From Anaerolineae bacterium (GTDB lineage Bacteria > Chloroflexota > Anaerolineae > J102), in the NCBI GenBank assembly GCA_026991225.1, contig JALXCB010000046.1:5147-69146 (forward strand): 64,000 nt of DNA. Reading direction: 5' to 3'. The notes beneath the pieces are model-generated. The model searched no databases and was not told the DNA's origin. It saw only the letters and a list, made by a program, of their open reading frames with translations. Below, piece by piece: positions 11,000-60,033 of the stretch. Both the position numbers and the translations under genes were made by a program. Position 1 is the stretch's first letter. The number at the start of each line of letters is the position of its first letter.

Positions 11000-11160
11000 A
11001 TCTCTCACGCAAAAGCGTCAAGTCGTCAAGACAAGTTTGCAAGTCGCAGGTGGCGGGTGGCAGGTGACAGGCGGAAGGAAGCAAGTAGAGCTGCGCAAGC
11101 TGACTTGCCACCTGCCAACACTTCTTTTCCCCCTTGCGCCCTGGCGTCTTTGCATGAGAT
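11000..11160. repeat. Family G element, copy G1 (terminal inverted repeats; 3' TIR abuts the hemL stop)
   Basis: ATCTCTCACGCAAAAGCG...TTTGCAAGTCGCAGGTGGCGGGTGGCAGGTG...CTTGCCACCTGCC...CGTCTTTGCATGAGAT. Confidence 0.75.
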
Positions 11161-12449
11161 CAAATGGCGCGGAAGGTCCTGTGCGCGGCTTCGACGGTGG
11201 CGTCGATGACCGCATCGTCGTGGGCCAGGGACATGAAGCCGGCCTCGAATTGGGAGGGGGCGAGATAGACGCCCGCTTCCAGCATGGCCCGGAAGTAGCG
11301 GGCGAAGCGTGCCGTATCGCTGGCCGCAGCCGAATCCCAGTCGGTGACCGGGCCTTCGGTGAAGAAGGCGGCGAACATGGTACCCACTCGGGTCTGATAG
11401 ATGGGCACGCCCGCGGCCCGGGCCGCGTCGCCGATGCCCCGAGACAATCGCTCCGTCCGGGCCTCCAGCGTCTCCCACACACCCGGCTCCGTCAGCTTGC
11501 GCAGGGTGACGATGCCCGCGGTCATGGCCAGGGGGTTGCCGGAAAGGGTCCCGGCCTGATAGACCGACCCCACCGGCGCCACCATCTCCATGATCTCCCG
11601 CCGGCCGCCGTACGCGCCCACAGGCAGCCCCCCGCCGATGACCTTGCCCAGGCAGGTGAGGTCGGGCCGGATGCCGTAGAGGGTTTGCGCGCCGCCCGGA
11701 TGCACGCGAAAGCCGGTCATCACCTCATCGAAGATGAGCAGCGCGCCATGGGCCTGGGTTATCGCCTGCAGCCCCTGCAAAAAGCCCTCTGCCGGAGGCA
11801 CGACGCCCATATTCCCGGCCACGGGCTCCACGATGACCGCGGCGATCTCTTCGGGGAACGCGTCGAACAGCGCCCGCACCGAGTCCAGATCGTTGTAGCG
11901 GGCGACCAGGGTGTCCTGCACCATGGCCGGGGGCACGCCGGGCGAATCGGGCAGGCCCAACGTCGCCACGCCCGACCCTGCCTGCACCAGCAGCAAGTCG
12001 GCATGGCCGTGATAGCAGCCCTGGAATTTGATGATCTTGTGGCGGCCGGTGTAGGCCCGGGCCAGGCGCAGCGCGCTCATGGTGGCCTCGGTGCCCGAAT
12101 TGACGAAGCGCACCATCTCGATGTTGGGCATGAATTCGGTCACCAGCCGGGCCAACTCGATCTCCAGGGGCGAAGGAGCGCCGTAGCTGGTGCCCTTGCG
12201 AACCGCCTCGGTCAGGGCGTCGACCACGTCGGGATGGGCGTGGCCCAGGATGAGCGGGCCCCACGAGAGCACGTAATCGATGAAGCGGTTGCCGTCCACG
12301 TCGAACAGATAGGGCCCCTCGCCCCGCTCGATGAACAGGGGCTGGCCGCCCACCGACTTGAAGGCCCGCACGGGCGAATCCACCCCGCCGGGGAGCAGGC
12401 TTTGGGCCTGGGAAAAGAATTGTTGGGATCGGGTGGTGTTGAGAGTCAT
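11160..12449 (-). CDS. hemL: Glutamate-1-semialdehyde 2,1-aminomutase
   Basis: 429 aa with the classic HemL N-terminus (...[23 protein letters not shown]...) and a class-III aminotransferase fold. Confidence 0.9.
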
Positions 12450-12508
12450 AGTGCTGGATCAGGAGTGGGGTTGGCAAGTTATGACGACTAAGTTATAATG
12501 TTGAAACC

Positions 12509-12739
12509 GTGAAGGCGACGAACTATTTCATCAACAGCGTTTTGAAACGGCGTCCCTACTTGCGATGGGAATGGATCGAACGGGTAATAGCCCATCCGAT
12601 TCGCACCGAAACGCAACCAAACGGACGCATCCGCTTTTGGGGCTGGATTGAAGAAAGAGGAAAGTATTTGCGCGTTGTCACAGAAGCGGATGGAGAAACC
12701 GTTCACAATGCCTTTTTCGATCGTCGTTTCAAACCTTAG
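12509..12739 (+). CDS. DUF4258-family small protein (putative toxin of a DUF4258/DUF2283 pair)
   Basis: 76 aa, GTG start. Basic small protein immediately upstream of a DUF2283-like ORF. Confidence 0.5.
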   Translation: MKATNYFINSVLKRRPYLRWEWIERVIAHPIRTETQPNGRIRFWGWIEERGKYLRVVTEADGETVHNAFFDRRFKP

Positions 12740-12753
12740 CCAGGATTTGCATC

Positions 12754-12990
12754 ATGATCTTCGAGTATTTTCCAGATACGGACATGCTTTATATCCAATT
12801 GAACGAGGGCATCAGCGTGGAATCGGCAGAAATCGCTCCCGGCGTTGTCATCGATCTGGACGATCAGGGCAGCATCATTGGTATTGAAATCGAGGATGCC
12901 AGCGAGCGATTCAATTTGTCTCGACTGGAGCTGAAAGGACTCCCGCTGGCTGACCTCGTCGTTCGGGACAGGTTGCCTCAAGCGGCCTGA
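12754..12990 (+). CDS. DUF2283-family small protein (putative antitoxin partner)
   Basis: 78 aa. MIFEYFPDTDMLYIQL... is the characteristic DUF2283 N-terminus. Confidence 0.55.
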   Translation: MIFEYFPDTDMLYIQLNEGISVESAEIAPGVVIDLDDQGSIIGIEIEDASERFNLSRLELKGLPLADLVVRDRLPQAA

Positions 12991-13089
12991 GCAGGACCTT
13001 ATCGGACAATCCAACGGCTCGCCGATACGAACGGAAATGGGAATGCTGATGACACGGATGCTTCGCAACGCAGATTTCCGCAGATCTGT

Positions 13090-13290
13090 TCCGAAAATAG
13101 CGTTGGCCCTCCCTGCCAAAAGTCGCCATGCCAACGTTGGGCGAGGCTGCAACGGACGTGATGAGTAATGCGTAATCCGTGAGATCGTTACGCATCACGC
13201 ATTACGCATTACGTGCTTGGCTTCCCGCGCCGCCCTGGCCGCGAGACATTTTCATCGGTATCGGCGCGCCGCCGCGCATGGCGCCTTCGT
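13090..13290 (+). repeat. Family A MITE-like element, copy A1
   Basis: ...CCGAAAATAGCGTTGG...CCAACGTTGGGCGAGGCTGCAACGG + CGTGATGAGTAATGCGTAATCCGTGAG...CGCATCACGCATTACGCATTACG hairpin + GGCTTCCCGCGCCGCCCTGGCCGCG...TTTTCATCGGTATCGGC tail. Confidence 0.8.
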
Positions 13291-13365
13291 TCTGATTTTT
13301 TCTGCGTTCATCTGCTTGCATCCGCGTTCACCTGCGTTCTCTCATCCTGGCTTCGGAACAAGGAT
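13291..13365. repeat. Family D copy D2 (overlaps the last ~15 codons and stop of hemY)
   Basis: CTGATTTTTTCTGCGTTCATCTGCTTGCATCCGCGTTCACCTGCGTTCTCTC. A D-like fragment also sits at about 13060-13090. Confidence 0.7.
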
Positions 13366-14750
13366 TTCACCGCCATCTCGCCCGAATGGATGCAGTCGGG
13401 GATGCCGATGCCGTGGTAGGCGTTGCCAGCCAGGGCCAGGCCCGGCCAGCGCTCCAACCCGGCCAGGATGCGTCCCACCCGAGCGGGATGGCCCACGTTG
13501 TATTGGGGCATGGCCCGCGGCCAGATAAAGACGCGGTGAAGAAAGGGCTCAGCGGTGACGCCCAGGGTCAGGCGCAGCTCCTCCCGGGCGATGGCCAACA
13601 GCCCTTCTTCCGTCCAATCGATGGCGTCTTCCTGGCCCGCGCGGCCCACGAACACCCGCAGCAAGGCCATGCCTTCGGGCGCGCGGTGGGGAAATTTGGT
13701 AGAGGTCCAGGTGCAGGCCAGGGCTTTGCGCCCCTCCCGGCGGGGGATCACGTAGCCGTAGCCGTCCAGCGGGCGGGGGACGTCGGCCAGGCGGTAGGCC
13801 AGGGAGATGGTGGCCGTGGACGCGTAGGGGATGGCGTCCAGCAGGGAAGCGAGTTCAGGGTCGTGCGGGCGCAGCAGGCGGGCAGAGACGAACGCGGGCG
13901 CAGCCAGGATGAGTCGGTCAGCCTTCAACACTGCATACTGATTACTGAATACTGAATATTGGTGACTATCCTTTTTCAACTCCCTCACCTCCACACCCAA
14001 CCTCAACTCCGCCCCCAATTTACGCAACCTCACCACCAACGCCTCCACCAGCTCGGCCAGGCCCGTTTGCGGGGTGACGAACATGCTGCGGGAGCCGGGC
14101 GCGGCCCCGTTGCGCTTCATCCGCTCCCGTTTGGCGGCCAGCGCGCCCCGCACCAATCCCCCATGCTTCACCTCCAGGTCTCGCAGATAGGGGAAGGTGG
14201 CTTGCAGGCTGAGCTGGTCGCCATCGCCCGCGTAGATGCCGCTCATCAACGGCTCGATGAGCGCCTCATAAGCCTCCCGCCCCAGGCGACGGCCCACAAA
14301 CCGGCCCAGGCTCTCCTCCCCGGGCGACTTCGCGGGCGGCAGCAGGAAGTCGAGGCCCATGCGCAGCTTGCCAGGCCAGGAGATGAGCCCGGTGCGCAGC
14401 ATCCCCCCGAAATCAGTGGGGATCATCATGGTCAGACCGCCGGGCAGGGGATGCAGGCGGCCTTTGTGCAGGATGTAGGTGGCTTTCTGCTTGGGGTTGC
14501 TGCCATGCAGACGGTCGGCGACGCCCAGCTCTCGGGCCAGGGCCATGCCCCACGGCTTTATGGCGATGAAGGTGTCGGGCCCGCCTTCGATGACGAAGCC
14601 ATCCACCCGCTCGGTCGCGATCTTCCCGCCCCAGCGGTGGGCTTTTTCCAGCACGATGACCTCATCGGGCGGGTTTTGGGGCCGGGTGAGGGCGAAGTAG
14701 GCGGCGGAGAGGCCGGCGATGCCACCGCCGATGATGATGAGTCGAGTCAT
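13308..14750 (-). CDS. hemY: Protoporphyrinogen/coproporphyrinogen III oxidase (HemY/CgoX, FAD-dependent)
   Basis: 480 aa. N-terminal MTRLIIIGGGIAGLSAAY dinucleotide-binding motif. Amine-oxidase fold. It carries an in-frame E-family repeat copy (about 13929-13970). Its last ~15 codons plus the stop lie in a D-family repeat. Confidence 0.85.
   Translation of the reverse strand: MTRLIIIGGGIAGLSAAYFALTRPQNPPDEVIVLEKAHRWGGKIATERVDGFVIEGGPDTFIAIKPWGMALARELGVADRLHGSNPKQKATYILHKGRLHPLPGGLTMMIPTDFGGMLRTGLISWPGKLRMGLDFLLPPAKSPGEESLGRFVGRRLGREAYEALIEPLMSGIYAGDGDQLSLQATFPYLRDLEVKHGGLVRGALAAKRERMKRNGAAPGSRSMFVTPQTGLAELVEALVVRLRKLGAELRLGVEVRELKKDSHQYSVFSNQYAVLKADRLILAAPAFVSARLLRPHDPELASLLDAIPYASTATISLAYRLADVPRPLDGYGYVIPRREGRKALACTWTSTKFPHRAPEGMALLRVFVGRAGQEDAIDWTEEGLLAIAREELRLTLGVTAEPFLHRVFIWPRAMPQYNVGHPARVGRILAGLERWPGLALAGNAYHGIGIPDCIHSGEMAVKSLFRSQDERTQVNADASR
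13929..13970. repeat. Family E copy E2, in frame inside hemY
   Basis: ACTGCATACTGATTACTGAATACTGAATATTGGTGAC, translated on the minus strand as ...HQYSVFSNQYAV... Confidence 0.55.
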
Positions 14751-14764
14751 AGAGTGATCTTACG

Positions 14765-14840
14765 TTGAGTAATCAGTTATCAGTAAACAGTAATCAGTGG
14801 GGGCGCGGATGGATACTGATTACTGATCACTGTTTACTGA
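14765..14840. repeat. Family E copy E3 (palindrome between hemY start and hemE stop)
   Basis: GAGTAATCAGTTATCAGTAAACAGTAATCAGTG...CACTGATTACTGATCACTGTTTACTGATTAC. Confidence 0.7.
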
Positions 14841-15908
14841 TTACTTCCGGTTAAATTCATGGACCATTGCGACGACGGCCCGCACGTTCTCCACGGGCGT
14901 GTGCTGCAAGATGCCGTGGCCCAGGTTGAAGATGTGGCCCGGTCGACCCGCCGCGCGGGTCAACACGTCCCGCACCTGGTTTTCCAGCTCGGGCAGGGGG
15001 GCGAAGAGTGCGGTGGGATCGAGATTGCCCTGCACGGCCACGTCGTCGCCCAACAGCGCCCATCCTTCATCCAGAGGGATGCGCCAATCCAGGCCGATGA
15101 CATGCCCGCCCGCGGCCTTCATCTCCCCTAGCAGCGTGGTTGCGCCCACGCCGAAGTGGATGACGGGGACGTCGGCCCGGGCCATGAGGGTTTGTAGAAT
15201 CTGGCGGGAATAGGGCTGGACGAAACGGCGGTAATCCTGAGGATTCAGTGCGCCCACCCAGGAATCGAAGAGCTGCAAGGCCTGTGCGCCCGCGTCGGCT
15301 TGCGCCAGCAGATAATCGATGAGCACGGGCGTGAGTTTTTGCATGAGGGCGCGCCAGGCGGCGGGCTGCCCGTACATGAGCTTCTTGGTTTCGACGAAGT
15401 TGCGGGACGGCCCGCCCTCGATAATGTAGGCGGCCAGGGTGAAGGGCGCTCCTGCGAAACCGATGAGGGGAACGTCCCGACCATCCAACTCCGTCCGCAC
15501 CAGGCGGATGGCCTCGTACACATGCCCCAGGTCGGCCCGCACGTCCACTGGCCGGAGCGCGGCCACGTCGTCGGGCGAGCGCACGGGGTTGTGGATGACG
15601 GGCCCGCGGCCGGGGACGAATTCCAGCTTCAGGCCCATGGGCGGCAGGGGCAGGAGGATGTCGGCGAAGAGGATGGCCGCGTCCACGCCCAGGGTGTCCA
15701 CGGGCTGGAGGGTGATCTCGGCCGCGACCTCGGGCCGGGCGATCATCTCCAGGATGCTCTTGTGCTGGCGGCGGATGGCCTGGTATTCGGGCATGTAGCG
15801 CCCGGCCTGGCGCATGAACCAGACGGGCGTCGTGTCAGTAATCAGTCTTCGAGTGGCTCTCAGAAATCTCGATGTTGGCTCGTTAGTCATCATTGTCAGG
15901 GTTCTCAT
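14841..15908 (-). CDS. hemE: Uroporphyrinogen decarboxylase
   Basis: ...TPVWFMRQAGRYMPEY... is the canonical HemE N-terminal motif. Start may be Met6/Met7 of the listed ORF. Confidence 0.9.
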   Translation of the reverse strand: MRTLTMMTNEPTSRFLRATRRLITDTTPVWFMRQAGRYMPEYQAIRRQHKSILEMIARPEVAAEITLQPVDTLGVDAAILFADILLPLPPMGLKLEFVPGRGPVIHNPVRSPDDVAALRPVDVRADLGHVYEAIRLVRTELDGRDVPLIGFAGAPFTLAAYIIEGGPSRNFVETKKLMYGQPAAWRALMQKLTPVLIDYLLAQADAGAQALQLFDSWVGALNPQDYRRFVQPYSRQILQTLMARADVPVIHFGVGATTLLGEMKAAGGHVIGLDWRIPLDEGWALLGDDVAVQGNLDPTALFAPLPELENQVRDVLTRAAGRPGHIFNLGHGILQHTPVENVRAVVAMVHEFNRK

Positions 15909-15919
15909 TGGAAAAGTAA

Positions 15920-15974
15920 TCAGTCATCAGTCCAACGGTTTGTTCCTCACTGATTACTGCTTACTGATAACTGA
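15920..15974. repeat. Family E copy E4 (between hemE start and the rSAM stop)
   Basis: GAAAAGTAATCAGTCATCAGTCC...CACTGATTACTGCTTACTGATAACTGATTAC. Confidence 0.65.
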
Positions 15975-17129
15975 TTACTTCGCCTCGCGAAAGGCTTCAG
16001 GAACGTACACACACGCCGGGTCAGTTTCCAGATAATCGCCGGTGACGCCATAGGCCCGGCCGCGCTGGCCGCCGCACACGTCGCGGAATTCGCAGACGCC
16101 GCAGCGGCCCTTCAGTTTGTCGGGGTCCCGCAGGTCTTTGAATAAAGGATGGTTGCGATAGACCTCGACCACGTCATCTTTGCGGACGTTTCCGGCCACG
16201 ATGGGCAGGAAGCCGGAGGGTTCGATATTGCCGATGTGGGAGATGAAGAGGAAGCCATTGCCGTCGTTGACGCCTTTGGTGGGGCGGTTGAGGCCGTCCG
16301 CGTACTGGAAGCCCGCGCCCTGGAAGGCGATGGGCGCATCTTCGCCCAGTTCCTGGCGCTTGCGCTGGATGGCCACGCGGCGATACATGGGCGCGGCCGT
16401 GGCTTTGACGTCGAAAGGCGCTTCTTGGGCCAGGTCATACAGCCAATTGAAAATGCGCTCGTGCTCCTCGGGGGAGATCATCCAGTCGATCTGGCCCCGG
16501 CCCGTGGGCACCAGGAAGAAGACGGACCACTGCACCGCGCCCACCTCTTCGATGAAAGGCACCATCTCGGGCAGGATGTGGGCGTTGTGTTTGGCGACGG
16601 TGGTGTTCACCTGCACGCTCAGGCCCACGTCATGCGCCCGATGCAGGATGTCCATGGTGCGCTGCCAGGAGCCCGCCACCTTGCGGAAGTCGTCGTGGAT
16701 GGCGGGGCGGGGCGCATCCAGGCTAAGGGCGATGCGGCGGATGCCCGCGTCCCGGGCCTTTTGCAGCCGCTCTTTGGTGGGCAGAGCCGTGGCCGTGGGC
16801 GTCAGGGAGCAGCGCAGGCCCTTTTCAGTGGCGTAGGCGATGAGATCGAACAGGTCGCGGCGCATCATGGGGTCGCCGCCGGTGAAGATGAGGATGGGAT
16901 GGTTGCCGAACGCGGCCAGCCGATCGATGAGCTGAAAGCCTTCCTCGGTGGTGAGTTCCAGGGGATGGCGTTGGGGTTGGGCGTCGGCCCGGCAGTGGAC
17001 GCAGGCGTAGGCGCAGGCCCGGGTCACTTCCCAGGCGATGGTGAAGGGCGCTTTGTCGAAGTCCGCGTGCACCATGCGCCGGTCGTGGTAGGTGCGTTCG
17101 GCTGTGGCGGAGGGGGTGAGGTTGGACAT
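15975..17129 (-). CDS. Radical SAM/SPASM-domain protein, AhbD/NirJ-like, embedded in the heme operon
   Basis: 384 aa. CAYACVHC (CxxxCxxC). C-terminal Cys cluster ...KGRCGVCEFRDVCGG...DPACVY (SPASM-type auxiliary cluster motifs). Sits between hemB and hemE on the same strand. Confidence 0.7.
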   Translation of the reverse strand: MSNLTPSATAERTYHDRRMVHADFDKAPFTIAWEVTRACAYACVHCRADAQPQRHPLELTTEEGFQLIDRLAAFGNHPILIFTGGDPMMRRDLFDLIAYATEKGLRCSLTPTATALPTKERLQKARDAGIRRIALSLDAPRPAIHDDFRKVAGSWQRTMDILHRAHDVGLSVQVNTTVAKHNAHILPEMVPFIEEVGAVQWSVFFLVPTGRGQIDWMISPEEHERIFNWLYDLAQEAPFDVKATAAPMYRRVAIQRKRQELGEDAPIAFQGAGFQYADGLNRPTKGVNDGNGFLFISHIGNIEPSGFLPIVAGNVRKDDVVEVYRNHPLFKDLRDPDKLKGRCGVCEFRDVCGGQRGRAYGVTGDYLETDPACVYVPEAFREAK

Positions 17130-17263
17130 GGGAGGATTGGGATTGGGATTGGAAGATTCGTCTTTTGTGACACGGATGGAAGGAACACGGATGACATTCG
17201 ATTGATGCTATCATTAAGCCATTTTCCCATCCGTGTTTTCTTTTATCCGTGTTGCATGACCTT

Positions 17264-18334
17264 TTACAGCAATTTTGCGGCGTCCAGGGCGAAGTAGGTG
17301 AGGATGAGATCAGCGCCCGCGCGTTTGATGGCGAGCAGGCTCTCCAGCATGACGCGGGTCCCGTCGATCCAGCCGTTGGCGGCCGCGGCCTTGATCATGG
17401 CGTATTCGCCCGAGACCTGGTATGCGGCCAGGGGGAGCTTCACCTGCTCCTTGAGCTGCGCCAGGATGTCCAGGTAGAAGCTGGCGGGCTTGACCATGAT
17501 GATGTCCGCGCCTTCGGCGATGTCGATCTGCACCTCGCGCAGGGCCTCGCGGGCGTTGGCCGGGTCCATCTGATACTGGCTGCGGTCGCCGAATGCGGGC
17601 GGGCTTTCGGCCGCGTCGCGGAAGGGACCGTAGAGGGCGCTGGCGTACTTGGCCGCATAGCTCATGATGGGGATGTGTTCGAACCCGGCGTCATCCAGGC
17701 CCGAGCGGATAGCGCCCACCATACCGTCCATCATGCCGCTGGGCGCGACCATGTCCGCGCCGGCGCGAGCGTGGGTCACCGCGGCCCGGCTGATGTAATC
17801 CAGGGTGGGGTCGTTGAGGACGTAGCCCGTGGGGAGATTGGGGTTGTACGCGGGCTCGTCGGGCGTGTTGATGATCCCGCAATGCCCGTGATTGGTGTAT
17901 TCACACATGCAGATGTCGCTGACCACGACCAGGCCGGGCAGCGCCCGCTTCAAGGCCCGAATGGCTTCAGGGATGATGCCGTGAGGATCGTCATTTTCGC
18001 TGCCGTAGGGGTCCTTGTGTTCGGGAATGCCGAAGAGGATGACCGAGCGCACACCCAGACTCCACGCCCGCTCCGCTTCCTCGATCATCGTGTCGATGGA
18101 GAGCTGGAACTGGCCGGGCATGGAGGGAATGGGGTGACGAACGCCCTCGCCGTGGCGCACGAACAGGGGGTAGATGAAATCCTCGGGATGGAGATGGGTT
18201 TCCTGCACCATTTGCCGCAGCGCGGGGGAAAGGCGCAGGCGGCGAGGGCGGGCCAGGAGGGAGCGATGGCCGTTGCCGGGCCTCGATGACGTCACAGCTG
18301 TGGGCAGGATGGTGGGGAAAGAAGTTGCGCTCAT
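17264..18334 (-). CDS. hemB: Porphobilinogen synthase (delta-aminolevulinate dehydratase)
   Basis: Start taken at [10 protein letters not shown]... (ATG 18332-18334). ALAD family motifs. Overlaps the hemD stop region. Confidence 0.9.
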
Positions 18335-22464: not shown

Positions 22465-23349
22465 TCAAGAAGCACGGGACGCTTCTGCTGCCTCCTCCAA
22501 TCGCCAGTACAGGGCCTGGATGGCTTCCCAGACGGCCTCGCGCAGGGCTTCGATTTGTTCCATGTTGGGGGGCTGCGCGGGCGTGTCCTCATCCTGCCGC
22601 CCGACATACATGGCCCGGCTGACTTCGATCATGGCCCAGGGCTGCTGGCTCTCCATGCCATGCGCCTTCAGGTCCCAGCCGCCCCAATAGGGGCTGTTGA
22701 GCGCGACCGGGCCCGGCTCCGCCACCTCGCACAGCGAAGGGATGCGGTTCAGCCGCCGCCCCACTTCCTGCCCGAAGAATTGCAGATGGTCGGCGGGCAT
22801 GGTGGTGCGGGGGTAGCCGTTGCGCAGGTGGCCGCGGGCGTCGCCCAGGTTGGAGACGCAGCCGCGGGGGCGGATTTGTTGCGCCGGGTCGTATTTGCGG
22901 GGCCCGCGCGCGGCCATGCTGTGGGCGTCGATGACCAGCTTCACCTCCGGGTCGCGGGCGATGGCGGCCAGTTGTTCGTGCCAGGGATGCCAGTAGCGAT
23001 GCACCAGCTCCCGCTCTTCCGCCAAATCGGGATGCTGGCCGGGCTTGAAGATGGTCTGGCCGTAGCTGGTGACGTCTTTAATGACGCCATCGCCGATGCG
23101 CTTGAGCTGGCCGGGATCGTCGGGGCGATTGACGTCGATGAGGGCGCGGGCGTAGGGAAAGCGCACCCAGTGACGCACGCGGTCGCGGAAGTCGAAAATC
23201 AGGTCGGTGTAGACATCCGCTTCGTTGAAGATGTGATCTTCCCCGATGGCCAGCCGCCCCTCGAATTCGGGCGGGACAGCCAGCCCGGCGTGGGGAAGGA
23301 TGATGGCGATGGGGAGTTTGTCGTCTTGAATCGTCCGTGTTGCGCTCAT
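22465..23349 (-). CDS. N-formylglutamate amidohydrolase family protein (FGase)
   Basis: About 295 aa from the ATG at 23347-23349. ...PIAIILPHAGLAVPPEF...VIDAHSM... FGase-type motifs. Confidence 0.65.
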   Translation of the reverse strand: MSATRTIQDDKLPIAIILPHAGLAVPPEFEGRLAIGEDHIFNEADVYTDLIFDFRDRVRHWVRFPYARALIDVNRPDDPGQLKRIGDGVIKDVTSYGQTIFKPGQHPDLAEERELVHRYWHPWHEQLAAIARDPEVKLVIDAHSMAARGPRKYDPAQQIRPRGCVSNLGDARGHLRNGYPRTTMPADHLQFFGQEVGRRLNRIPSLCEVAEPGPVALNSPYWGGWDLKAHGMESQQPWAMIEVSRAMYVGRQDEDTPAQPPNMEQIEALREAVWEAIQALYWRLEEAAEASRAS

Positions 23350-23547
23350 GGTTCCATGCGACGCAAGGGGTGGGATATGAGAAAAGGTGCGACTTGACCG
23401 AAATGAGCTGGCATTCCGATAGGTCGCACCTGTTTTGTATACGAACAATCGAAGCCAATTGTTCCTCAACGTTCTTTTCAGGCGACACGGGCAGCAACCC
23501 GCCGTTACGGATGAAAACGCCCCGCGGCCGGGGCCGTGCAGGAAGCC

Positions 23548-23650
23548 AAGCACGTAATGCGTGATGCGTAACGATCTCACGTTTCACGTTTTCACGCATC
23601 ACGCCCGTTGCAGACTCGCCCAACCTTGGCTTTGCGAACCTTCAGCAACC
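23548..23650 (-). repeat. Family A copy A3 (inverted)
   Basis: GTAATGCGTGATGCGTAACGATCTCACG...CGCATCACGCCCGTTGCAGACTCGCCCAACCTTGG. Confidence 0.7.
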
Positions 23651-25070: not shown

Positions 25071-26378
25071 TCATTCAATCGTCTTTTTAATCAACGCGGG
25101 CGGCGTCACGGGTTCATCGCTCCAGGCGTAGGCGGTCAGAAGCTCTTCGGCCGCGGCCCGGGCCTCGGCTTCGGTGCGGGCGTGGATGTCGCAGAGGACG
25201 TCGCCCGCATCCACCCGGTCGCCGATCTTCGCCCGCAGGACGACGCCCACGCGATGGTCGATGAGATCGCCCTTCTTCTCGCGGCCGCCGCCCAGCTTCA
25301 CCGTGACTTCGCCGAATGTGCGAGCGCGCACCTGGCTGAGATAGCCCGATTGAGGGGACGTCAGGGGCAGGACCACGGGCGCGGCGGCCAGGATGGCGTC
25401 GGGATCGTCGGCCACGCGAGGATCGCCGCCCTGATAGGCCACGAACATTTGGAATTTGCGCAACGCCCGGCCGCTGGCCAGGGCCTCTTCCACGCGGGAT
25501 CGCCCCTCCTCCACGCTGTCCACTCGCCCGCACATCTGCAATAGATGCGCGGCCTCGGTGAGGATGAGTTCGGTGAAATCGGCCGGGCCTTCGCCCTTGA
25601 GGGTGGCGATCGCCTCCTTCACCTCCAGCGCATTGCCCACGGCCAGGCCCAAAGGCTGATTCATGTCGGTGACCCGGGCCGCGACCTTGCGCCCGGACAG
25701 CTTGCCGATGGCGACCATAAGCCGGGCCAGCTCCACCGCGTCCTCCAGTATCTCCATGAACGCGCCATTGCCGGTTTTTACGTCAAGCAAAATCACGTCC
25801 GCGCCCGCGGCCAGCTTCTTCGACATGATGGAGGAGGCGATGAGGGCCATGCTGGGCACGGTCGCGGTCACATCGCGCAGTGCGTAAAGCTTCTTGTCCG
25901 CGGGAGCCAGTTCCGCGGTCTGCCCGGCCACGACGATGCCGATGTCGGCCAGTTGCTTCTTGAATTCCTCAATGGTCAGCTCCGCCCGCCAGCCGGGGAT
26001 GGATTCCAGCTTGTCCAGGGTGCCGCCCGAGAAGCCCAGTCCCCGGCCCGACATCTTGCCGATGGGCTGGCCCGCGGCCGCGACGATGGGCGCCAGGGCC
26101 AGGGTCACCTTGTCGCCCACGCCGCCGGTGGAATGCTTGTCCGCCACGGGCCTGACCACGTCGCTCAGGTCGAGGGTCTCGCCCGAATGGGCCATGCTCA
26201 GGGTGAGGTCGGTGACCTCGCGGTCGGTCATACCTCGTAACAGCACGGCCATGGCCCAGGCCGCGGCCTGGTAGTCGGGAATCTCGCCCCGCGTGTACCC
26301 CTGGATGAAGAAATCGATCTCCTCGGTGGTCAATTCCAGACCGTCTCGTTTTTTGGCGATGATATCGACAGCGCGCAT
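25071..26378 (-). CDS. pdp: Pyrimidine-nucleoside (thymidine) phosphorylase
   Basis: About 435 aa from the ATG at 26376-26378. ...[20 protein letters not shown]... and ...[13 protein letters not shown]... glycosyltransferase-family-3 motifs. Confidence 0.85.
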
Positions 26379-26404
26379 GGGAACTCCTGCTATGAAAATA
26401 GATT

Positions 26405-26562
26405 TGGAGGACGCAGATAACGCAGATTGAAACGGATGAACGCAGATGATAAAGAAAAAATCTGCGAAAATCATCTGCGAAAATCTGCATTGCGAAGCAT
26501 CCGTGTCATCTGCGCTCTCATTTTCATTGGTATTGGCGCGGGCTTGCCCGCCATCGGACTGC
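26405..26562. repeat. Family D copy D3
   Basis: GACGCAGATAACGCAGATTGAAACGGATGAACGCAGATGATAAAGAAAAAATCTGCGAAAATCATCTGCGAAAATCTGCATTGCGAAGCATCCGTGTCATCTGCGC. Confidence 0.75.
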
Positions 26563-34962: not shown

Positions 34963-35062
34963 TCGAAAAAAGAACGCAGATGACGCAGATTTGAACGGAT
35001 TGATGTGGATAAAAATCCGTGATTGTCCGCGATGCGAAGCATCTGCGGCATCAGCGTTCCCC
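34963..35062. repeat. Family D copy D4
   Basis: AACGCAGATGACGCAGATTTGAACGGATTGATGTGGATAAAAATCCGTGATTGTCCGCGATGCGAAGCATCTGCGGCATC. Confidence 0.7.
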
Positions 35063-35088: not shown

Positions 35089-36438
35089 ATGACTGATGAC
35101 TTGACTTCTCACCTGGAACGCCTTCATCGTCCCATGACCGACGCCATCAAGGAGATGGTGCGCATCCCCAGCTACCTGGTCGAAGGCGGGGATGGCTATC
35201 CCTTTGGCCGTGCGGTGCACGAGGCCCTGCAAAAGGCTGTGGATATCGCCGCGGGCCTGGGCTTCCGCGCGTGGTACGACGGCGCGGGCTATTACGCTTG
35301 GGCCGAGATCGGCGAGGGGGATGCGCTGATCGGCGTGGTGGGGCATGTGGACGTGGTGCCGCCCGGCAATCCCGAATCCTGGATCACGCCTCCCTTCCAG
35401 CCCGATGAGCGGGATGGCAGGCTGTATGGGCGAGGAACGCAGGATGACAAAGGCCCGATGATGGCGGCGCTGTTCGCGGTGAAGGCGCTGATGGATGCGG
35501 GCGTGACCTTCCCCAAGCGAGTGCGCTTCATCTTTGGCGGGGATGAGGAGAACCACTGGCGGGGCATCGACCGCTATCTGGCGCGGGAGGAAGTTCCGAG
35601 CATGGGCTTCACGCCCGACGCGGAATTCCCCCTCATCTTCGCGGAAAAGCACATCCTGCAAGTGGAGCTGATGGGTCCAAATGAGGCTGCCGCGCCCGAG
35701 ATGGACCTGGGCACGGCTTTCAATGCGGTGCCGGGCGAGGCCCTTTACACCGGCCCGCATCAGGACGCGCTGGCCGCGAAGCTGGACGAACTGGGCTTCG
35801 AATATGAGCGGGTGGACGCGGGCATCCGCGTGTTGGGCCAGGCCGCCCACGCCTCCCTGCCCGAAAAGGGCGTCAACGCCATCGCCCGCCTGGCCATCGC
35901 CCTGGACGCCATCGGCTGCCAGGCCAGGACCATCCGCTTTCTGGCCCAGACCGCGGGCATGGATTACCACGCGAAGGCCATCTTCGGGCGGGTGGAGGAC
36001 GAGGTCTCGGGCAAACTCACCTTCAACGTGGGCAAACTTATCATCACGCCCGAAGAGGAGCGCCTGGGTATCGACATGCGCATCCCCGTCACCGCGGACG
36101 TGGCTCAGGTAACAGCGAAGCTGCAGGAGGCAGCGAGCAAGTTCGGGCTGAGCTACCATGAGCGGGCCTCCATGCCCGCGCTTTACGTGCCCCTGGACCA
36201 TCCCTTGGTGAACACGCTGCTGGCGGTGTACCGCGAGGTGACGGGCGATGAGGACGCGCAGCCCATCGCTATCGGCGGGGGCACCTACGCCCGGGCCATG
36301 CCCAACTGCGTGGCCTACGGTCCCAACTTCCCCGGCCGCCCCGAGACCGCACATCAGGCGAACGAGTATGTCATCCTGGAAGACCTGTATCGGGCGATGG
36401 CGGTGTACGCGGAGGCGATTTATCGGTTGACGCGGTAA
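35089..36438 (+). CDS. M20-family dipeptidase (Sapep/PepV-like)
   Basis: GGAGG 8 nt before ATG (MTDDLTSH...). ...GVVGHVDVVPPG... and ...GTQDDKGPMMAAL... M20 metal-binding motifs. Alternative start at 35074. Confidence 0.7.
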   Translation: MTDDLTSHLERLHRPMTDAIKEMVRIPSYLVEGGDGYPFGRAVHEALQKAVDIAAGLGFRAWYDGAGYYAWAEIGEGDALIGVVGHVDVVPPGNPESWITPPFQPDERDGRLYGRGTQDDKGPMMAALFAVKALMDAGVTFPKRVRFIFGGDEENHWRGIDRYLAREEVPSMGFTPDAEFPLIFAEKHILQVELMGPNEAAAPEMDLGTAFNAVPGEALYTGPHQDALAAKLDELGFEYERVDAGIRVLGQAAHASLPEKGVNAIARLAIALDAIGCQARTIRFLAQTAGMDYHAKAIFGRVEDEVSGKLTFNVGKLIITPEEERLGIDMRIPVTADVAQVTAKLQEAASKFGLSYHERASMPALYVPLDHPLVNTLLAVYREVTGDEDAQPIAIGGGTYARAMPNCVAYGPNFPGRPETAHQANEYVILEDLYRAMAVYAEAIYRLTR

Positions 36439-39400
36439 ACCACCACCTCCCCCGCCACATCCAGAAAACACACCACCGCCCGCGGGGTCACATCCAACAA
36501 TGCGCGCACCGCCTCGGCATAGCGCCGCACCTGTTCGTCGTAGCCCTTCTCGGCGATAATCGCCTCCATCTCCGCCCGGTCCCGCGCCCGATCCGTCTTG
36601 AAATCCACCAGGGTCCAGTCCTCGCCCGTGCGGTAGAGCAGGTCGATGGTCCCGCGGGCGGGGACGCCGTCGGGATCGAGATAGGCGTAAGGGACTTCGT
36701 GCAGGCGCTGGTCCGCGGCCTGAATCTCGGCCCACAGGGCGCTCGCAGCCAGGTTGCGCAGCAGACGCCGGGTCCGCCACAGCGCGTTGCGGATCATGCC
36801 GGGGTCGCTGAGGCCCAACCCCCGGGCGCTGGCCTCCAGCCAGGCGTCGAAGTTGGGCGCGTCGGGCATACGCTCCAGCTCGATGGCCCGATGCGCGAGC
36901 TTGCCCACCATCCACGCCGGGGCCCAGGCCCGCGCGCCCTCGGGCGGGAAGATGCGCCACACCCGGCGCTCGGGCTCCTGCTCCCGCTGGCGCGCGTCCT
37001 CATCCAGCGCGTCCTCGACCGGCTCGAAAGGCGCCAGCAGCTTGGGTTGGAAGGGCGGGGGGGCGAGGGCGTCGGTCTCGGGCGTGTACGTTCGCCGGGG
37101 CGCGGCCGCGTCCTCCACCCGCACGCATCGCACCGGCGCGCCCGCCATCCCCAAACGACAAATCTGCTCCCCCGCACCCTCCGCCTGGACGAAGGCATCC
37201 AGCTCCGGCAAAGCCAGCTTCAGCCATCGATACCAGCCGCCTTTGTTCCATCGCCCCACCACGCCATTGAGGATCAGGTGATCTTCGGCCCGGGTGGCGG
37301 CCACATAGAACAGCCGCTTGTCCTCGGCCTCCTCCTTGCGGGCCTCCATCCGTTGCAGAAGCTGATAAAACGCGGGTTTGGCTTCGTTTTCCGAGGACGA
37401 AGGGACCTTCCAGGCCATCCAGCCATCCGCGATGACCACGCCGCGGCCTCTTCGCGGAGCATAAGTGATATCGCCCAGCACGACGATGGGGAACTCCAGG
37501 CCCTTGGCCCGATGCACGGTCATGATCTGCACCGCGCCCTCGGCCACCACGGGCGCTTCGCCCTCGCGCACGTCCGCATCCCGGGCCAGATCGATCCACT
37601 CCAGGAACGAGGCCATGTGCACCAGGCCCGCGGCCTGCACATCGGCCAGGAGCTTGTTCACGTTGCGCACGGCCCGGCTTTGCCCCGCCCCGGCCAGAAT
37701 GGCCAGATAATCGGTCTCGTCCACATAGCCCTTGAGCAGGTCGGCCACGGGCGCGCGGCCCGCCATGCCGTGCAGCCGGGTTAGGAGCTCGCGGGCGAAC
37801 GTCAGGCGGGGGAGTTCGTCCGGAGGAAAGTCGTGGGGTGGGGTTTGGACGGCTGTCCACAAATCGTGACGTTTGACGTTTGACGTTTGACGAAGCCGCT
37901 CCCGATGCCGGGCGAGATGATAGAGCGCGACGTCGCTCAGGCCCAGACCGGGCGACCGCAAGGCCCCGACCAGGGCGACGTCGTCGGTGGGGTCGGCCGC
38001 AGCCCGCATGACGTTGGTCAGATCGCGGATCTCCGGGCGCTGGAAGAAGCCCCGCCCGGCTAGAGTGAGAAAAGGCACGCCCGCCGCGTCCAGCGCGTCC
38101 TCATACGCGGCGAAGCTGGTCGCCGCCCGGCAGAGGATGGCCGCGTCGCCGGGGGCGTAGCCCTGGTCGAACAACGCAATCAGCCGGTTGACCGCGGCCC
38201 GGGCCGCAATGGGCATGGCCTCCCCCTTGTTCCCCGCGGCCAACTGCACCTCGATGAAGGCGTCGGAGGCGATGCGGGGCGCGCGGTCGCGGGCGGACGT
38301 CAGCGGGGCGAACGCGGCTTCCCAATCATAGCGGGCCCGCCCCAACACCGGCTCCAGCAGGTCGTTGAGGCCATCGACCAGACGGGCGTGGGCGCGGTAG
38401 GTGGCGTTCAACCGGGCCACGCGCTTGCCCGCGGCCTCGAAGTCCCCCTCGGTGCGGGTGAACACCGCCACCTCTGCGCCGCGAAAGCGGTAGATGGACT
38501 GCTTGGCGTCGCCCACGAGAAAACGCACGCCCCGCCCGCCGTCCAGCAGTTCCAGCAGCCGGGCCTGGCGGGCGTTGGTGTCCTGGAATTCATCCACCAG
38601 CAGGGCCTGCACCTCTTCCCGCCAGCGCCGCCGCACCGAGGGATGATCCTCCAGCAGGCTCACGGCGCGGGTTTCCAGATCGTCGAAATCCAGAGCGTGG
38701 GCCTCGCCCTTGCGGGCCTCGTAAATGGCGAAGGCTTGCAGGGCCACGGCCCGCAGCGCCGCCAGCGCCCGGGCCGAGCGCGCGTCCTCCTCGTTCAGCC
38801 CCATGCTCAACCATGCGTTCTCCTTGCCGAAGAAGGGTTCGCGCAACGTTTTGAGCGCTTGCTGGATGGCGGTTTTCCCCTCGGGCCAGGCCTTTGCCGT
38901 CCCCACTCTGCTGTAATTTTTGATGCCAGCCAACAGGGCTGCGGCCCGCCGAAGCGCGTCGGCGTCCTGTCGATCCGACAGCCATTGCAGAGCTTCCCGA
39001 GCCGTCTGCACCAACATGGACAACTTATCGGATGGAACTCGGATGCGGGCTTGTTCTATCGCCGCGCGGGCGGCCTGCCAGTCGGGATCCGCCACGATCT
39101 CCTCCAGCCGCGCCCGCTGCATCCGGGCCAATTCGGTCTCCCACGCGGCCAGCAGGGCATCCGGATGATGGGGCATGGACGCTAGCAGCGCCCGCGCATC
39201 CACCCCCTGCTGCAACAATGCCGACAAAGCCCCGCGCACCTCGCTTTCCCCCACCTGTGCGAACAATCCGGCCAGTTCCGCCTGATTCGCTGCCCAAAAC
39301 AGGGCGTCTTCCACCGCCTCACGCTTCAGCAGGGCCATGCGCCCCTCTTCGATGACCTGAAAATCGGGATCGACCCGGGCCTCGACAGGGTGGGCGCGCA

Positions 39401-39749
39401 GGATCTCCTGGCAGAGGCTGTGGATGGTGCTGATGCGGGCCGCGTCGAGCTGCGAGGCGATGGCGTGCCAGCGTTCCCGTTCCGCGGGCTCCAGATCGGG
39501 GCGGGCGAGATAGGCCCACACCTGCTCGCGGATGCGCTTGCGCATCTCGCGGGCGGCCTTGCGGGTGAAGGTGATGGCCACGATGCCCCGCAGGGGCAGC
39601 CCTGCGGCCAGCAGGGCCAGAAAACGGGCAGTAAGGGCCCAGGTCTTGCCCGCGCCCGCGCCTGCGGTCACCAGCACATCGGTGGGGCCGAACGCGGCCC
39701 GGGTCTGGGCCTCGCTCAGCGTCAGGGATTGGAGGATGGGATGATGCAT
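36420..39749 (-). CDS. UvrD/AddA-type superfamily-1 helicase fused to a C-terminal PD-(D/E)XK nuclease domain
   Basis: 1109 aa. Walker A TAGAGAGKT. UvrD motifs. C-terminal ...GTIDLLYRTGEDWTLVDFKTD... AddA/AddB-type nuclease motif. No partner subunit adjacent. Contains an in-frame A-family repeat fragment at about 37858-37895. Confidence 0.8.
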   Translation of the reverse strand: MHHPILQSLTLSEAQTRAAFGPTDVLVTAGAGAGKTWALTARFLALLAAGLPLRGIVAITFTRKAAREMRKRIREQVWAYLARPDLEPAERERWHAIASQLDAARISTIHSLCQEILRAHPVEARVDPDFQVIEEGRMALLKREAVEDALFWAANQAELAGLFAQVGESEVRGALSALLQQGVDARALLASMPHHPDALLAAWETELARMQRARLEEIVADPDWQAARAAIEQARIRVPSDKLSMLVQTAREALQWLSDRQDADALRRAAALLAGIKNYSRVGTAKAWPEGKTAIQQALKTLREPFFGKENAWLSMGLNEEDARSARALAALRAVALQAFAIYEARKGEAHALDFDDLETRAVSLLEDHPSVRRRWREEVQALLVDEFQDTNARQARLLELLDGGRGVRFLVGDAKQSIYRFRGAEVAVFTRTEGDFEAAGKRVARLNATYRAHARLVDGLNDLLEPVLGRARYDWEAAFAPLTSARDRAPRIASDAFIEVQLAAGNKGEAMPIAARAAVNRLIALFDQGYAPGDAAILCRAATSFAAYEDALDAAGVPFLTLAGRGFFQRPEIRDLTNVMRAAADPTDDVALVGALRSPGLGLSDVALYHLARHRERLRQTSNVKRHDLWTAVQTPPHDFPPDELPRLTFARELLTRLHGMAGRAPVADLLKGYVDETDYLAILAGAGQSRAVRNVNKLLADVQAAGLVHMASFLEWIDLARDADVREGEAPVVAEGAVQIMTVHRAKGLEFPIVVLGDITYAPRRGRGVVIADGWMAWKVPSSSENEAKPAFYQLLQRMEARKEEAEDKRLFYVAATRAEDHLILNGVVGRWNKGGWYRWLKLALPELDAFVQAEGAGEQICRLGMAGAPVRCVRVEDAAAPRRTYTPETDALAPPPFQPKLLAPFEPVEDALDEDARQREQEPERRVWRIFPPEGARAWAPAWMVGKLAHRAIELERMPDAPNFDAWLEASARGLGLSDPGMIRNALWRTRRLLRNLAASALWAEIQAADQRLHEVPYAYLDPDGVPARGTIDLLYRTGEDWTLVDFKTDRARDRAEMEAIIAEKGYDEQVRRYAEAVRALLDVTPRAVVCFLDVAGEVVVYRVNR

Positions 39750-52894: not shown

Positions 52895-52927
52895 GCGGTG
52901 CTCCTTGGGTGAGAGATGAGAGAAAAT

Positions 52928-52986
52928 GACGATGGACGATGGCGCTAAGCCTTATCGTCCACCGTCCATCGTCTATCGTCTGTTTT
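52928..52986 (-). terminator. Hairpin terminator immediately downstream of the P-type ATPase gene
   Basis: GACGATGGACGATGG...CCACCGTCCATCGTC inverted repeat followed by a U-rich tract on the minus strand. Confidence 0.45.
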
Positions 52987-58842: not shown

Positions 58843-60033
58843 TCAGGTCTGGCAAAACGCGGACAACCATGCTTCCAGGCCCGCGGCCCGACACTCCCAA
58901 CTGAGGCGGGGCGCTGCAGCGAAAACCGCCCGGCTGAGGCGGCCGCGAGCCGATGCGTCCGTCAGCAGAAGCTGGAGCCGGGCGATCAACGTGTCCTCGT
59001 TCGGGGCGGGCTCCCCGCCCGCCTCGCGCACCAGCGCGCCATACTCCCCCACATCCAACGTCAGCGAGGGGACGCCCTGCGCCAGACAGTCGAGCGCCCT
59101 GGCCGGGCTTTTGGCCTGGACCAGGGGCTTTTTGTTGGGCAGGAAGAGGCAGACCGCAGCTGAGCGGATGGTCTGGACATAGCGGTCGGGGGGGAGCCAG
59201 CCCAAGATGCGGGCGTTGGGCACGGGGAAGGGGGGACGCCAGCCGCCCGCGATGAGCAATTCGGCCTGGGGGACGCGGGCGCTCACCTGTGCCCAGACGC
59301 GGGTCAGCATCCCCGCATCCGCATCATGCCCGCGCGTAAGCAGGAGCGCGTGCGGGAGGTTGGCTTCCACCGGGGCGCGGGTCGCCGCGGGTGTGAGACC
59401 GTTGGGAAGATAGTAAGGCATGGGAGAAGGAAAGCGCTTCAGCGCGTCCGCACGGCCCAAGACCTCGGAGGTCCGCTGAGACCTCCGAGGTCTCCATGGC
59501 GACCAATGGGCCTGCAGAAAGCGGGAGGCGACGGTAACGCCCATGGCGTCGCGGATGAGCTCGCGCTCCTGGCGGGTCAGCAGTCGGGCGAGAAGCCGAT
59601 TCCGCCCCGTTTCCTCCATCCAGGCCACTTCCAGATCATCCACATCCACCACCACCCGCCTGTCCCGCCGCATCCACCAGCGCCCGACCCAGCCCGCATA
59701 GCCCAACCCCTTGCTCACGATCAACGCGTCCGGCCCAAACGCCTCCACCTCCCGCCGCAGTCGTCCCAAAAGCGCCGGATACGCTCCCCGCCACCCCACT
59801 CCCAGCTCCGGCGTCATCACCTTCACCGCCTCCGCTCCCCACGGTCCGCCCTCCGACTTCTGACCTCTGACCCCTGCCCCCTGACCTCTGACTTCCTCGG
59901 GGCAATCCCACGCCGGGATGAGCAGCGCGGTCCCATGCCCGCGGGCGGCCAGGGCTCGGGCCAGCGGCAGCAGCCGACTACCCACGGTCCCCCGTCGGCA
60001 GCGTCCGAATGGAGCAAGAATGAGGAAACGCAT
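58843..60033 (-). CDS. Glycosyltransferase (GT-B fold, GT1/GT4-like)
   Basis: 396 aa. Carries two in-frame palindromic/direct-repeat DNA segments at about 59455-59500 and about 59850-59905. Confidence 0.6.
   Translation of the reverse strand: MRFLILAPFGRCRRGTVGSRLLPLARALAARGHGTALLIPAWDCPEEVRGQGAGVRGQKSEGGPWGAEAVKVMTPELGVGWRGAYPALLGRLRREVEAFGPDALIVSKGLGYAGWVGRWWMRRDRRVVVDVDDLEVAWMEETGRNRLLARLLTRQERELIRDAMGVTVASRFLQAHWSPWRPRRSQRTSEVLGRADALKRFPSPMPYYLPNGLTPAATRAPVEANLPHALLLTRGHDADAGMLTRVWAQVSARVPQAELLIAGGWRPPFPVPNARILGWLPPDRYVQTIRSAAVCLFLPNKKPLVQAKSPARALDCLAQGVPSLTLDVGEYGALVREAGGEPAPNEDTLIARLQLLLTDASARGRLSRAVFAAAPRLSWECRAAGLEAWLSAFCQT

Follow-up and report, generated by a model that had tools for sequence, protein, structure and literature searches.

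The hemY gene of an uncultured Anaerolineae bacterium carries, inside its intact reading frame, a tandem array of 7-nucleotide (nt) units that is read as part of the enzyme. We analyzed a stretch of 64,000 nt (hereafter the window; contig JALXCB010000046.1, positions 5,147 to 69,146), in which hemY occupies positions 13308..14750 of the minus strand and the embedded heptamer array positions 13929..13964 of the same strand. We consider it probable, with a real margin of doubt, that this array of the WWACTGA family is a tolerated passenger, translated within hemY, that replaced a native hairpin of the protein, and that a repeat-derived tail at the C-terminus goes back to the same cause. The genome, from an Anaerolineae/Caldilineae-like Chloroflexota lineage, is rich in short tandem arrays of 7- to 10-nt units, most of which lie between genes and many of which form hairpins in pairs. 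The product of hemY is a HemY-type protoporphyrinogen/coproporphyrinogen III oxidase of 480 amino acids (aa), which matches TIGR00562 over residues 2-463 (E 2e-87, 293.7 bits against a cutoff of 97.85) as well as the Bacillus subtilis protoporphyrinogen oxidase (PPO)/HemY structure PDB 3I6D (E 2.5e-93), and whose N-terminal GxGxxG motif for flavin adenine dinucleotide (FAD) reads GGGIAG at residues 8-13. Its AlphaFold2 (AF2) model has a predicted TM-score (pTM) of 0.83 and, in Foldseek, superimposes on the PPO/CgoX structures 2IVE, 3I6D, and 9A78 with TM-scores of 0.85-0.91.

On the plus strand, positions 13930-13966 of the hemY open reading frame (ORF) read ACTGCATACTGATTACTGAATACTGAATATTGGTGAC; the array proper, as supported by Tandem Repeats Finder (TRF), unit register, and GC content at third codon positions (GC3), spans codons H263-V274 (HQYSVFSNQYAV), and codons 262-274 are translated as ...SHQYSVFSNQYAV... 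in the protein. It consists of four to five tandem units of NNTCAGT, which appear on the coding strand as CACCAAT ATTCAGT ATTCAGT AATCAGT ATGCAGT and on the plus strand as WWACTGA. TRF assigns a period of 7 with 4.1 copies and 86% matches at 13930-13958, and a 21-mer taken from the array has four matches in the window, compared to none in 100 shuffles. The segment also differs in composition from its surroundings: its GC content is 0.36 versus 0.67 for the gene, making it the sole stretch of hemY with a value of ≤0.36 in 36-nt windows, and its GC3 is 4/12 versus 0.85 in the remainder of hemY (binomial P = 8e-5). In addition to 13930-13958, WWACTGA arrays occur in the window at 927-954, 14768-14845, and 15949-15979, the second of these being an intergenic hairpin, one arm of which (14810-14845) is 78% identical to the embedded array over 36 nt, while the arm at 14768-14798, 800 nt away from the array, is 77-81% complementary to it. 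The ORF, TRF, the shuffles, and GC3 together bear out the claim, made in an earlier note on this DNA, that a repeat copy lies in frame inside an intact 480-aa HemY. An assembly artifact was considered and rejected, since eight independent assemblies have in-frame arrays at identical codons.

The same note had placed the repeat in a variable loop and expected orthologues to reveal an indel exactly there, and in both respects the data point elsewhere. As a measure of segment length, we used the distance from TGLAELVE to LILATPA, two conserved anchors, at the hemY loci of 132 Chloroflexota sequences. This distance ranges from 48 to 75 aa, its mode is 50 residues (75/132 loci), and the window has exactly 50. 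The HMMER alignment of the array segment to B. subtilis HemY 3I6D is likewise free of gaps (kkdshqysvfsnqyavlkad versus shsgscysleldngvtldad). Gap-free alignment and modal length together argue that the array is not a net insertion: the repeat took the place of the native hairpin at unchanged length and added no residues, and no indel was found in the orthologue alignment. In the AF2 model, the 10-residue blocks around the array segment have predicted local distance difference test (pLDDT) values of 91-98, with three short strands at residues 255-260, 265-269, and 275-277 and a turn at 270-274. We take this three-stranded segment to be the β-meander of the amine-oxidase/p-hydroxybenzoate hydroxylase (PHBH)-type FAD domain, which precedes the strand ending in ...LILAxP. 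According to the model, the array thus corresponds to the first strand of the native hairpin and its turn, both confidently predicted, and the variable loop consists of the roughly six residues N-terminal to it.

How a repeat of this kind can be read at all follows from its unit length and its orientation. Since 7 and 10 are both coprime with 3, each trinucleotide of a heptamer or decamer unit falls into every frame once per three units. The plus-strand unit ACTGA(A/T)T contains TGA, and in a six-frame translation the plus strand of the array is closed in 3/3 frames; the minus strand is open in 2/3 frames, one of which is the hemY frame with the peptide QYSVFSNQYAV. Three heptamers make up 21 nt and therefore specify a 7-residue repeat, (Y)SV(F/I)S(N)Q, in which hydrophobic and polar residues alternate. 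At the in-frame junctions between units, the sequence is CAG TAT (Q-Y), where a unit starting with AA would give CAG TAA, and every in-frame junction of the array indeed has TAT rather than TAA. A full WWACTGA hairpin would block translation, since its forward arm leaves none of the three frames open; this explains why hemY contains just one arm, and in this orientation. A search of 5.8 billion proteins with three copies of the peptide (QYSVFSN/QYSVISN) yielded 349 candidates and one match, a hypothetical protein of 45 aa, and was uninformative.

The nearest genomes to the window are metagenome-assembled genomes (MAGs) of uncultured Anaerolineae/Caldilineae with 80-91% amino acid identity, and we compared the DNA of twelve relatives. 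NNTCAGT units occur in register at the same codons in the full-length loci L001, L003, L081, L082, L084, L086, and L087 and in the partial locus L088. The last two are what a metagenome scan for further alleles added, and L087, an independent Joint Genome Institute (JGI) contig with 99.7% DNA identity to the window, carries an identical array allele. Among the heptamer alleles the number of units varies from 4 to 7, with a change in protein length of only −1 to +2 residues, and the array region shows lower conservation than the remainder of hemY (63-90% versus 81-91%). The extent of the array also varies by allele: where the window has CAG TAT GCA GTG, L003 has CAG GGG GCA GCC, and in L081 the array starts two units further left. 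Spreading by copying within the array would leave such variation, although the variation does not prove it. The canonical hairpin, Y-x-[LIV]-x-L-x-x-G-[ED]-x-[LI]-x-x-D, is instead present in L002, L004, L083, L005, and L085 and in all distant orthologues. Every orthologue that shares the array peptide also has heptamers in its DNA, and the earlier note's proposed counterexample, repeat-free orthologues that keep these residues, was not encountered apart from the structural positions Y265, V267, and D278.

Under closer inspection, the difference between heptamer and canonical alleles is confined to a cassette (13914..13997, minus strand) of about 28 aligned codons, approximately codons 252-279, which comprises the β-meander strand, the loop, and the hairpin. 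Sliding identity between the window and L002, and between L084 and L083, falls from 85-100% to 13-33% only in this cassette and with sharp borders, the drop being limited to alignment columns of about 252-305; inside the cassette, heptamer and canonical alleles show random-level nucleotide identity. Outside it, the nearest relative of the window is L002 (90.9%), which is canonical and has no array, and the heptamer loci L084 and L086 cluster at 94% identity with the canonical loci L004 and L083. In a neighbor-joining tree, the canonical alleles are nested among the heptamer alleles, and between L084 and L083 blocks of 100% identity alternate with blocks of 84-91% along the whole gene, a recombination mosaic that explains the shuffling of cassette alleles. 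L004 and L083 share 3.5 kb at 99.4-99.8% identity and have the hemY cassette as their sole structural difference (L004:1440-1552 versus L083:2266-2357). Here they contain different in-frame inserts, of 78 nt and 54 nt respectively, both located in the loop immediately N-terminal to the array segment, and the adjacent hairpin differs at 8/42 nt. The L083 insert (+18 aa) is built from two inverted heptamer arms of 14 nt that are 93% complementary, and it aligns with an intergenic heptamer hairpin of the same family in the window (GACGATG/CATCGTC, 52925..52985; TRF 52928-52942 and 52953-52981). The L004 insert (+26 aa) combines a 21-nt duplication with inverted repeats. An exact search for the cores of both inserts in 86 loci matched only the inserts themselves. 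The 13 close sequences contain six or more distinct alleles. The cassette of about 28 codons behaves as a hypervariable block shuffled by recombination.

Three further observations concern the vicinity of the array. Directly upstream of it in the coding direction, positions 13983-14018 are strongly G/T-rich (GC skew of −0.88 on the plus strand), hold an imperfect 18-nt duplication (CCTCAACTCCACACCCAA twice), and use TTG and AGG codons that are unusual for hemY; this stretch is common to L001 and, in part, to L003. A candidate −1 frameshift site just upstream of the array, G AAA AAG, was discarded, as it does not conform to X XXY YYZ, is absent in L001, and has no downstream structure. Finally, several distant hemY genes have repeat-like insertions at the same loop, for instance NIEYSNLENSNTRYSVEL in L108 and ESLDTETLDTDS in L123.

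The second repeat-derived part of HemY is its C-terminus. A decamer array at 13301..13340 (TCTGCGTTCA on the plus strand, GAACGCAGAT-type on the coding strand; TRF period 10, 3.9 copies at 13301-13339; repeat family D1) encodes R471-R480 (RTQVNADASR, codons at 13311-13340) together with the stop codon TGA at 13308-13310, such that the coding strand of hemY ends in GAT GAG, AGA ACG CAG GTG AAC GCG GAT GCA AGC AGA TGA. The codons GAT GAG ahead of the array are also found in L002, whose hemY stops two codons later, and we therefore attribute only R471-R480 and the stop to the repeat. Accordingly, the earlier note was right that the gene runs into a downstream repeat, but the contribution is about 10 codons plus TGA and not about 15. 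Its further expectation of a C-terminus longer than in orthologues holds against 11 close relatives, which the window exceeds by 5-15 residues, but not against the wider family, in which 11-44 residues follow the GIPDCI motif and the window falls within this range. In the AF2 model, residues 468-480 have pLDDT values below 50. Since the decamer period is not divisible by 3 and TGA occurs within the unit, the array closes every frame within three units, as seen in all three frames of the hemY strand, which are closed within about 30 nt; an ORF entering it can therefore gain at most about 10 residues.

Repeats crowd the entire 3′ flank of hemY (13061-13093, 13149-13221, and 13291-13340). The first is a CGCAGAT-type pair (13061..13093) whose orientation is opposite to that of the decamer array ending the gene, with which it forms inverted repeat I19 (13067-13085/13320-13338, 74% complementary); repeats of this type also lie between genes at 2488-2519, 26404-26488, and 34967-34998 and 3′ of hemY in L004. 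The second (13149..13221) is a hairpin of another heptamer family, CGTAATG/TTACGCA (inverted repeats I2/I9, TRF 13188-13213), which forms the main stem in a modestly structured fold of 12995-13345 (z = −2.09). Among relatives, the gene directly after hemY is hemL in L001, L005, L081, and L085 and a ferrochelatase gene in L083, L084, and L086, and these differences show that the 3′ flank has been remodeled. The stop codon of hemY is the TAA of a TCAGTAA unit in L003, and it lies in or at an array of period 7-8 in 7/161 loci.

On the 5′ side, the intergenic WWACTGA hairpin (14768..14845; TRF 14768-14798 and 14814-14845) lies between hemE and hemY and corresponds to inverted repeat I1, with 31-nt arms of 87% complementarity, a 16-nt loop, and a single TCAGTTA unit. 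It ends 17 nt ahead of the hemY ATG, and the stop codon of hemE (TAA, 14841-14843) falls within its outer arm, the array at 14814-14845; in this one window, many arrays follow stop codons or form hairpins. The orthologous hairpin is present in L003, L004, L083, and L084 and absent in L002 and L086, and the C-termini of the hemE products differ accordingly: HEFNRK in the window, HEFIWK in L003, HEFGVISKQ in L004 and L083, and HEFTSA in the hairpin-free L002. In L004, hemE runs five codons into the array and ends in EFGVISKQ. The C-terminus of hemE is thus another repeat-derived tail, in the neighboring gene. The haem operon to which hemY belongs runs on the minus strand in the order radical-SAM gene, hemE, and hemY, followed by a DUF2283 pair on the other strand and then hemL. 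The pair consists of two small plus-strand ORFs (12509-12990) of 76 aa, without a Pfam match, and 78 aa, with DUF2283, which look like a toxin-antitoxin-like pair. A promoter and terminator scan of 12900-16100 returned nothing beyond shuffle expectation, and the heptamer hairpins were not called as intrinsic terminators.

In the window as a whole, 21/25 arrays of period 7 are intergenic or overlap gene ends, while about 86% of the window is coding and only ~14% non-coding. One array inside a gene (59850-59892, minus strand, 6.1 copies, GTCAGAG-type on the coding strand) lies in a GT4-type glycosyltransferase ORF (58843-60033), where it is read in frame as ...EEVRGQGAGVRGQKSEGG...; relative to 13 orthologues, it adds a net ~13 aa to a variable loop, with intermediate lengths in closer relatives. 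About 140 residues further on, the same protein has a second window-specific insertion (...QRTSEVLGRADALKRFPSPMP...). Another, perfect array of 3.7 CGTCAAA copies on the coding strand (37867-37892, minus strand, GC 0.46) is located in ORF 36420-39749, a 1109-aa UvrD/AddA-like helicase, and is read as ...RERLRQTSNVKRHDLW.... Two minus-strand ORFs, 22465-23580 and 25071-26474, have mechanically assigned starts that run into the arrays 23553-23596 and 26456-26488; their true starts probably lie further downstream, in which case the repeats would inflate the automatic N-terminal annotation. Beyond the window, arrays of period 7 are common across Anaerolineae, with at least one in 51/87 loci of about 7 kb, and the CAGT/ACTG type occurs in a subset of Anaerolineae loci (among the Chloroflexota hemY neighborhoods L006-L166).

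How could a repeat come to replace part of an enzyme without changing its length? We propose that a WWACTGA array, in the only orientation in which it can be translated, would have overwritten, codon for codon, the first strand of a hairpin in the β-meander of the FAD domain together with its turn, and that the enzyme tolerates it because the array peptide can take the same strand-turn conformation. The exchange probably came about by template switching, by short-patch conversion from another array, or by an insertion and a compensating deletion, in the last case driven by selection on the length of the hairpin. The array would then be kept in place by purifying selection that preserves the frame, the length, and the absence of stop codons, and homologous recombination would move it among lineages and thereby give rise to the 28-codon hypervariable block. 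At the other end of the gene, the decamer array may have abutted or replaced the native 3′ end, leaving the disordered tail of ~10 residues. The embedded array would most likely be a passenger without function of its own.

Several considerations weigh against this account. The absence of function is something we infer, and the CAGT periodicity is kept in lineages that are only 83-91% identical and differ in their array boundaries (4 to 7 units), which could reflect ongoing homogenization, or selection on a DNA or RNA motif rather than drift. Moreover, replacing a segment at constant length calls for two separate events or else for a type of conversion that is yet to be demonstrated in arrays of this kind. 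The tree, finally, is based on 431 codons of a recombining gene, with moderate bootstrap values of 62-79% at key nodes, so that the array may have been gained once and replaced later on, or gained several times.

The earlier note had likened the array to the Rickettsia palindromic elements (RPEs), and an RPE-like event, in which a mobile palindrome entered a variable surface loop of HemY without disrupting the frame and lengthened the protein, is the first alternative to weigh. Such insertions clearly take place in this clade, as the true in-frame hairpin repeats one loop upstream in L083 and L004 and the glycosyltransferase array demonstrate, and the array of the window could be the one arm that a deletion left of such an element. 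However, the simple form of this explanation is refuted by the gap-free alignments and the unchanged length, and the residues concerned form a strand and turn, not a loop. An inverted-repeat search found no partner of the array within hemY, and the RNA fold of 13900-14000 is no better than that of shuffles (z = 0.07); an Rfam scan of 11000-17500 with E up to 1 returned only a spurious miRNA match, on the hairpin. The array also measures 35 nt versus about 150 bp for RPEs (PMC10969869), and a complete WWACTGA hairpin would be unreadable. What survives of the comparison is a dispersed repeat read in frame, whereas the palindrome and the added residues do not, and we regard an RPE-like origin as unlikely.

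It is tempting to speculate that the β-meander of HemY in this clade is a hot spot at which an active repeat-propagating mechanism, which could be a recombinase, a nuclease, or template switching at heptamer arrays, deposits, extends, and exchanges elements, one array having been recruited as a structural part of the enzyme. We give this idea about as little weight as the RPE-like event. If true, it would mean de novo replacement of protein structure by non-coding satellite DNA, with cassettes that differ between strains 99.7% identical elsewhere.

Slightly less likely still is that the array acts as a functional cis-element at the DNA or RNA level, either as a site for a repeat-binding protein or as a pairing partner of the 5′ hairpin arm, and is conserved for regulation of the hem operon. 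The 7-nt register of CAGT in eight lineages, with the first two or three unit positions varying as they do in intergenic arrays, would fit such a role, as would the complementarity to the arm at 14768-14798, and binding of a post-transcriptional regulator is what MacGregor proposed for the TAACTGA repeats (PMC4679880). However, five close relatives, including the nearest relative L002, do without the array, and its presence is uncorrelated with that of the upstream hairpin. There is no local RNA structure, the hairpin arms pair far better with each other than with the array, and the array region is, as described above, less conserved among heptamer alleles than the rest of the gene.

Alternatively, the cassette might be under diversifying or balancing selection or be a targeted landing site, that is, a programmed variable region rather than the product of neutral turnover. 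This would accommodate the different elements in strains that are otherwise 99.7% identical, the 8/42 substitutions in the adjacent hairpin, the number of alleles, and a loop that varies from 48 to 75 aa over 132 loci. For a housekeeping haem enzyme such as HemY, however, there is no evident reason to diversify, the mosaicism along the whole gene already explains the shuffling, and neither a recombinase nor a template repeat was found beside the locus, whose neighbors are hemE, the radical-SAM gene, the DUF2283 pair, and hemL; we consider this improbable. Phase variation, in which slippage of 7-nt units would shift the frame and switch hemY on and off, is suggested by the range of 4 to 7 units between lineages and by heptamer tracts being classical slippage substrates (Mrazek 2007, as summarized in PMC4679880), but it is very improbable, given that the imperfect units (86% matches) suppress slippage and that all 8 alleles are in frame with length differences in multiples of 3 (−3, +6 nt) and not 7. 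Ancestral coding sequence that resembles the repeat by chance, as might be imagined from Y265, V267, and D278 at family-conserved positions and from the likeness of YQVILSNG in L083 to YSVISNQG in L084, is effectively refuted by the GC3 and unique low GC of the segment, the lack of chance matches in shuffles, and the random-level identity to canonical alleles where all distant orthologues have the canonical hairpin.

Replacement by a tolerated array, the reading we favor, has consequences beyond this gene. It illustrates the means by which tandem repeats with a unit length not divisible by three can persist in an essential gene, namely a single orientation, a 21-nt super-period, and TAT junctions, and it shows that repeat DNA can stand in for native secondary structure and not merely add a loop. 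It also cautions annotators of Anaerolineae MAGs that low-GC patches in genes and short, odd C-terminal tails (of the NAD, VISKQ, or ICVHLR type) are often read-through into repeats rather than errors or new domains. Finally, the polymorphism of the cassette in near-identical strains amounts to a natural experiment on the tolerance of the FAD-domain β-meander.

We also compared the array with known systems. Beyond the general resemblance discussed above, RPEs are palindromic, about 150 bp long, fall into about ten families, and add roughly 30-50 residues with a conserved peptide (PMC10969869). They share with the present case the occurrence of dispersed non-coding repeats in frame in unrelated metabolic genes at tolerant positions, and the inserts of L083 and L004 behave in just this way; the WWACTGA family, too, has multiple copies in the window, intergenic and intragenic. 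The copy in hemY, however, is a 35-nt single-arm tandem array in a Chloroflexota host, without palindrome or added residues. As it fails the defining features, RPEs serve here as an analogy and not as a classification. Translated repeats are also known from Borg elements, where nucleotide tandem repeats with units in multiples of 3 arise in ORFs and are translated into new intrinsically disordered insertions (PMC9879509). Origin within an ORF and translation are shared, whereas the 7-nt unit described here replaces an ordered hairpin and only the C-terminal tail is disordered.

Tandem heptamers as such are widespread. They are the most abundant class of long simple sequence repeats in many genomes (Mrazek 2007, as summarized in PMC4679880), and in one survey Chloroflexus aurantiacus tops the list of bacterial satellites, where families with short units go back to heptamers or hexamers (Subirana and Messeguer 2019, PMC6749651). 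According to these surveys, units that are not multiples of 3 avoid coding sequence (Mrazek 2007 via PMC4679880; PMC6749651). The array in hemY differs in that it survives inside a gene, by virtue of its orientation, its 21-nt super-period, and the avoidance of stop codons. Cyanobacteria harbor the heptanucleotide STRR families CCCCAGT, TTGGTCA, and CAACAGT, reportedly described by Mazel et al. in 1990. These are likewise tandem heptanucleotides with several families per genome, a unit ending in CAGT, and a mainly intergenic location, but they have other unit sequences and a different host phylum, and they are not known to replace secondary structure of an enzyme in frame.

The closest precedent is the TAACTGA heptamer, whose direct repeats are found in marine Beggiatoaceae, cyanobacteria, and Bacteroidetes (MacGregor 2015, PMC4679880). 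They come in 2-6 or more copies, are overwhelmingly intergenic, and often lie over the stop codon of the upstream gene; ORF-internal cases are mostly in hypothetical proteins or at protein ends and peripheral positions (PMC4679880). Copies directly ahead of start codons are the proposed site of a translational regulator. Read forward, TAACTGA gives stops in all frames, and in reverse it encodes LSVISYQ, which is predicted to form antiparallel β-structure (PMC4679880). The arrays of the window agree with this description in their head-to-tail 7-nt units with an ACTGA core, their mainly intergenic location, their overlap with stop codons, and the combination of a closed forward strand with a 7-residue, β-prone peptide in reverse, LSVISYQ there and YSV[FI]SNQ here. 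They differ in the unit, since the embedded plus-strand units ATACTGA and TTACTGA are each one mismatch from TAACTGA, in being often arranged as inverted hairpins, and in coexisting with many other heptamer and decamer families. They also extend TAACTGA-like heptamer repeats to the Chloroflexota, which lay outside that survey, and in hemY they replace, at constant length, a core hairpin of a conserved enzyme. Taken together, translated heptamer arrays are a known phenomenon, and what hemY adds to it are two twists, the structural replacement at constant length and the hypervariable cassette shuffled by recombination.

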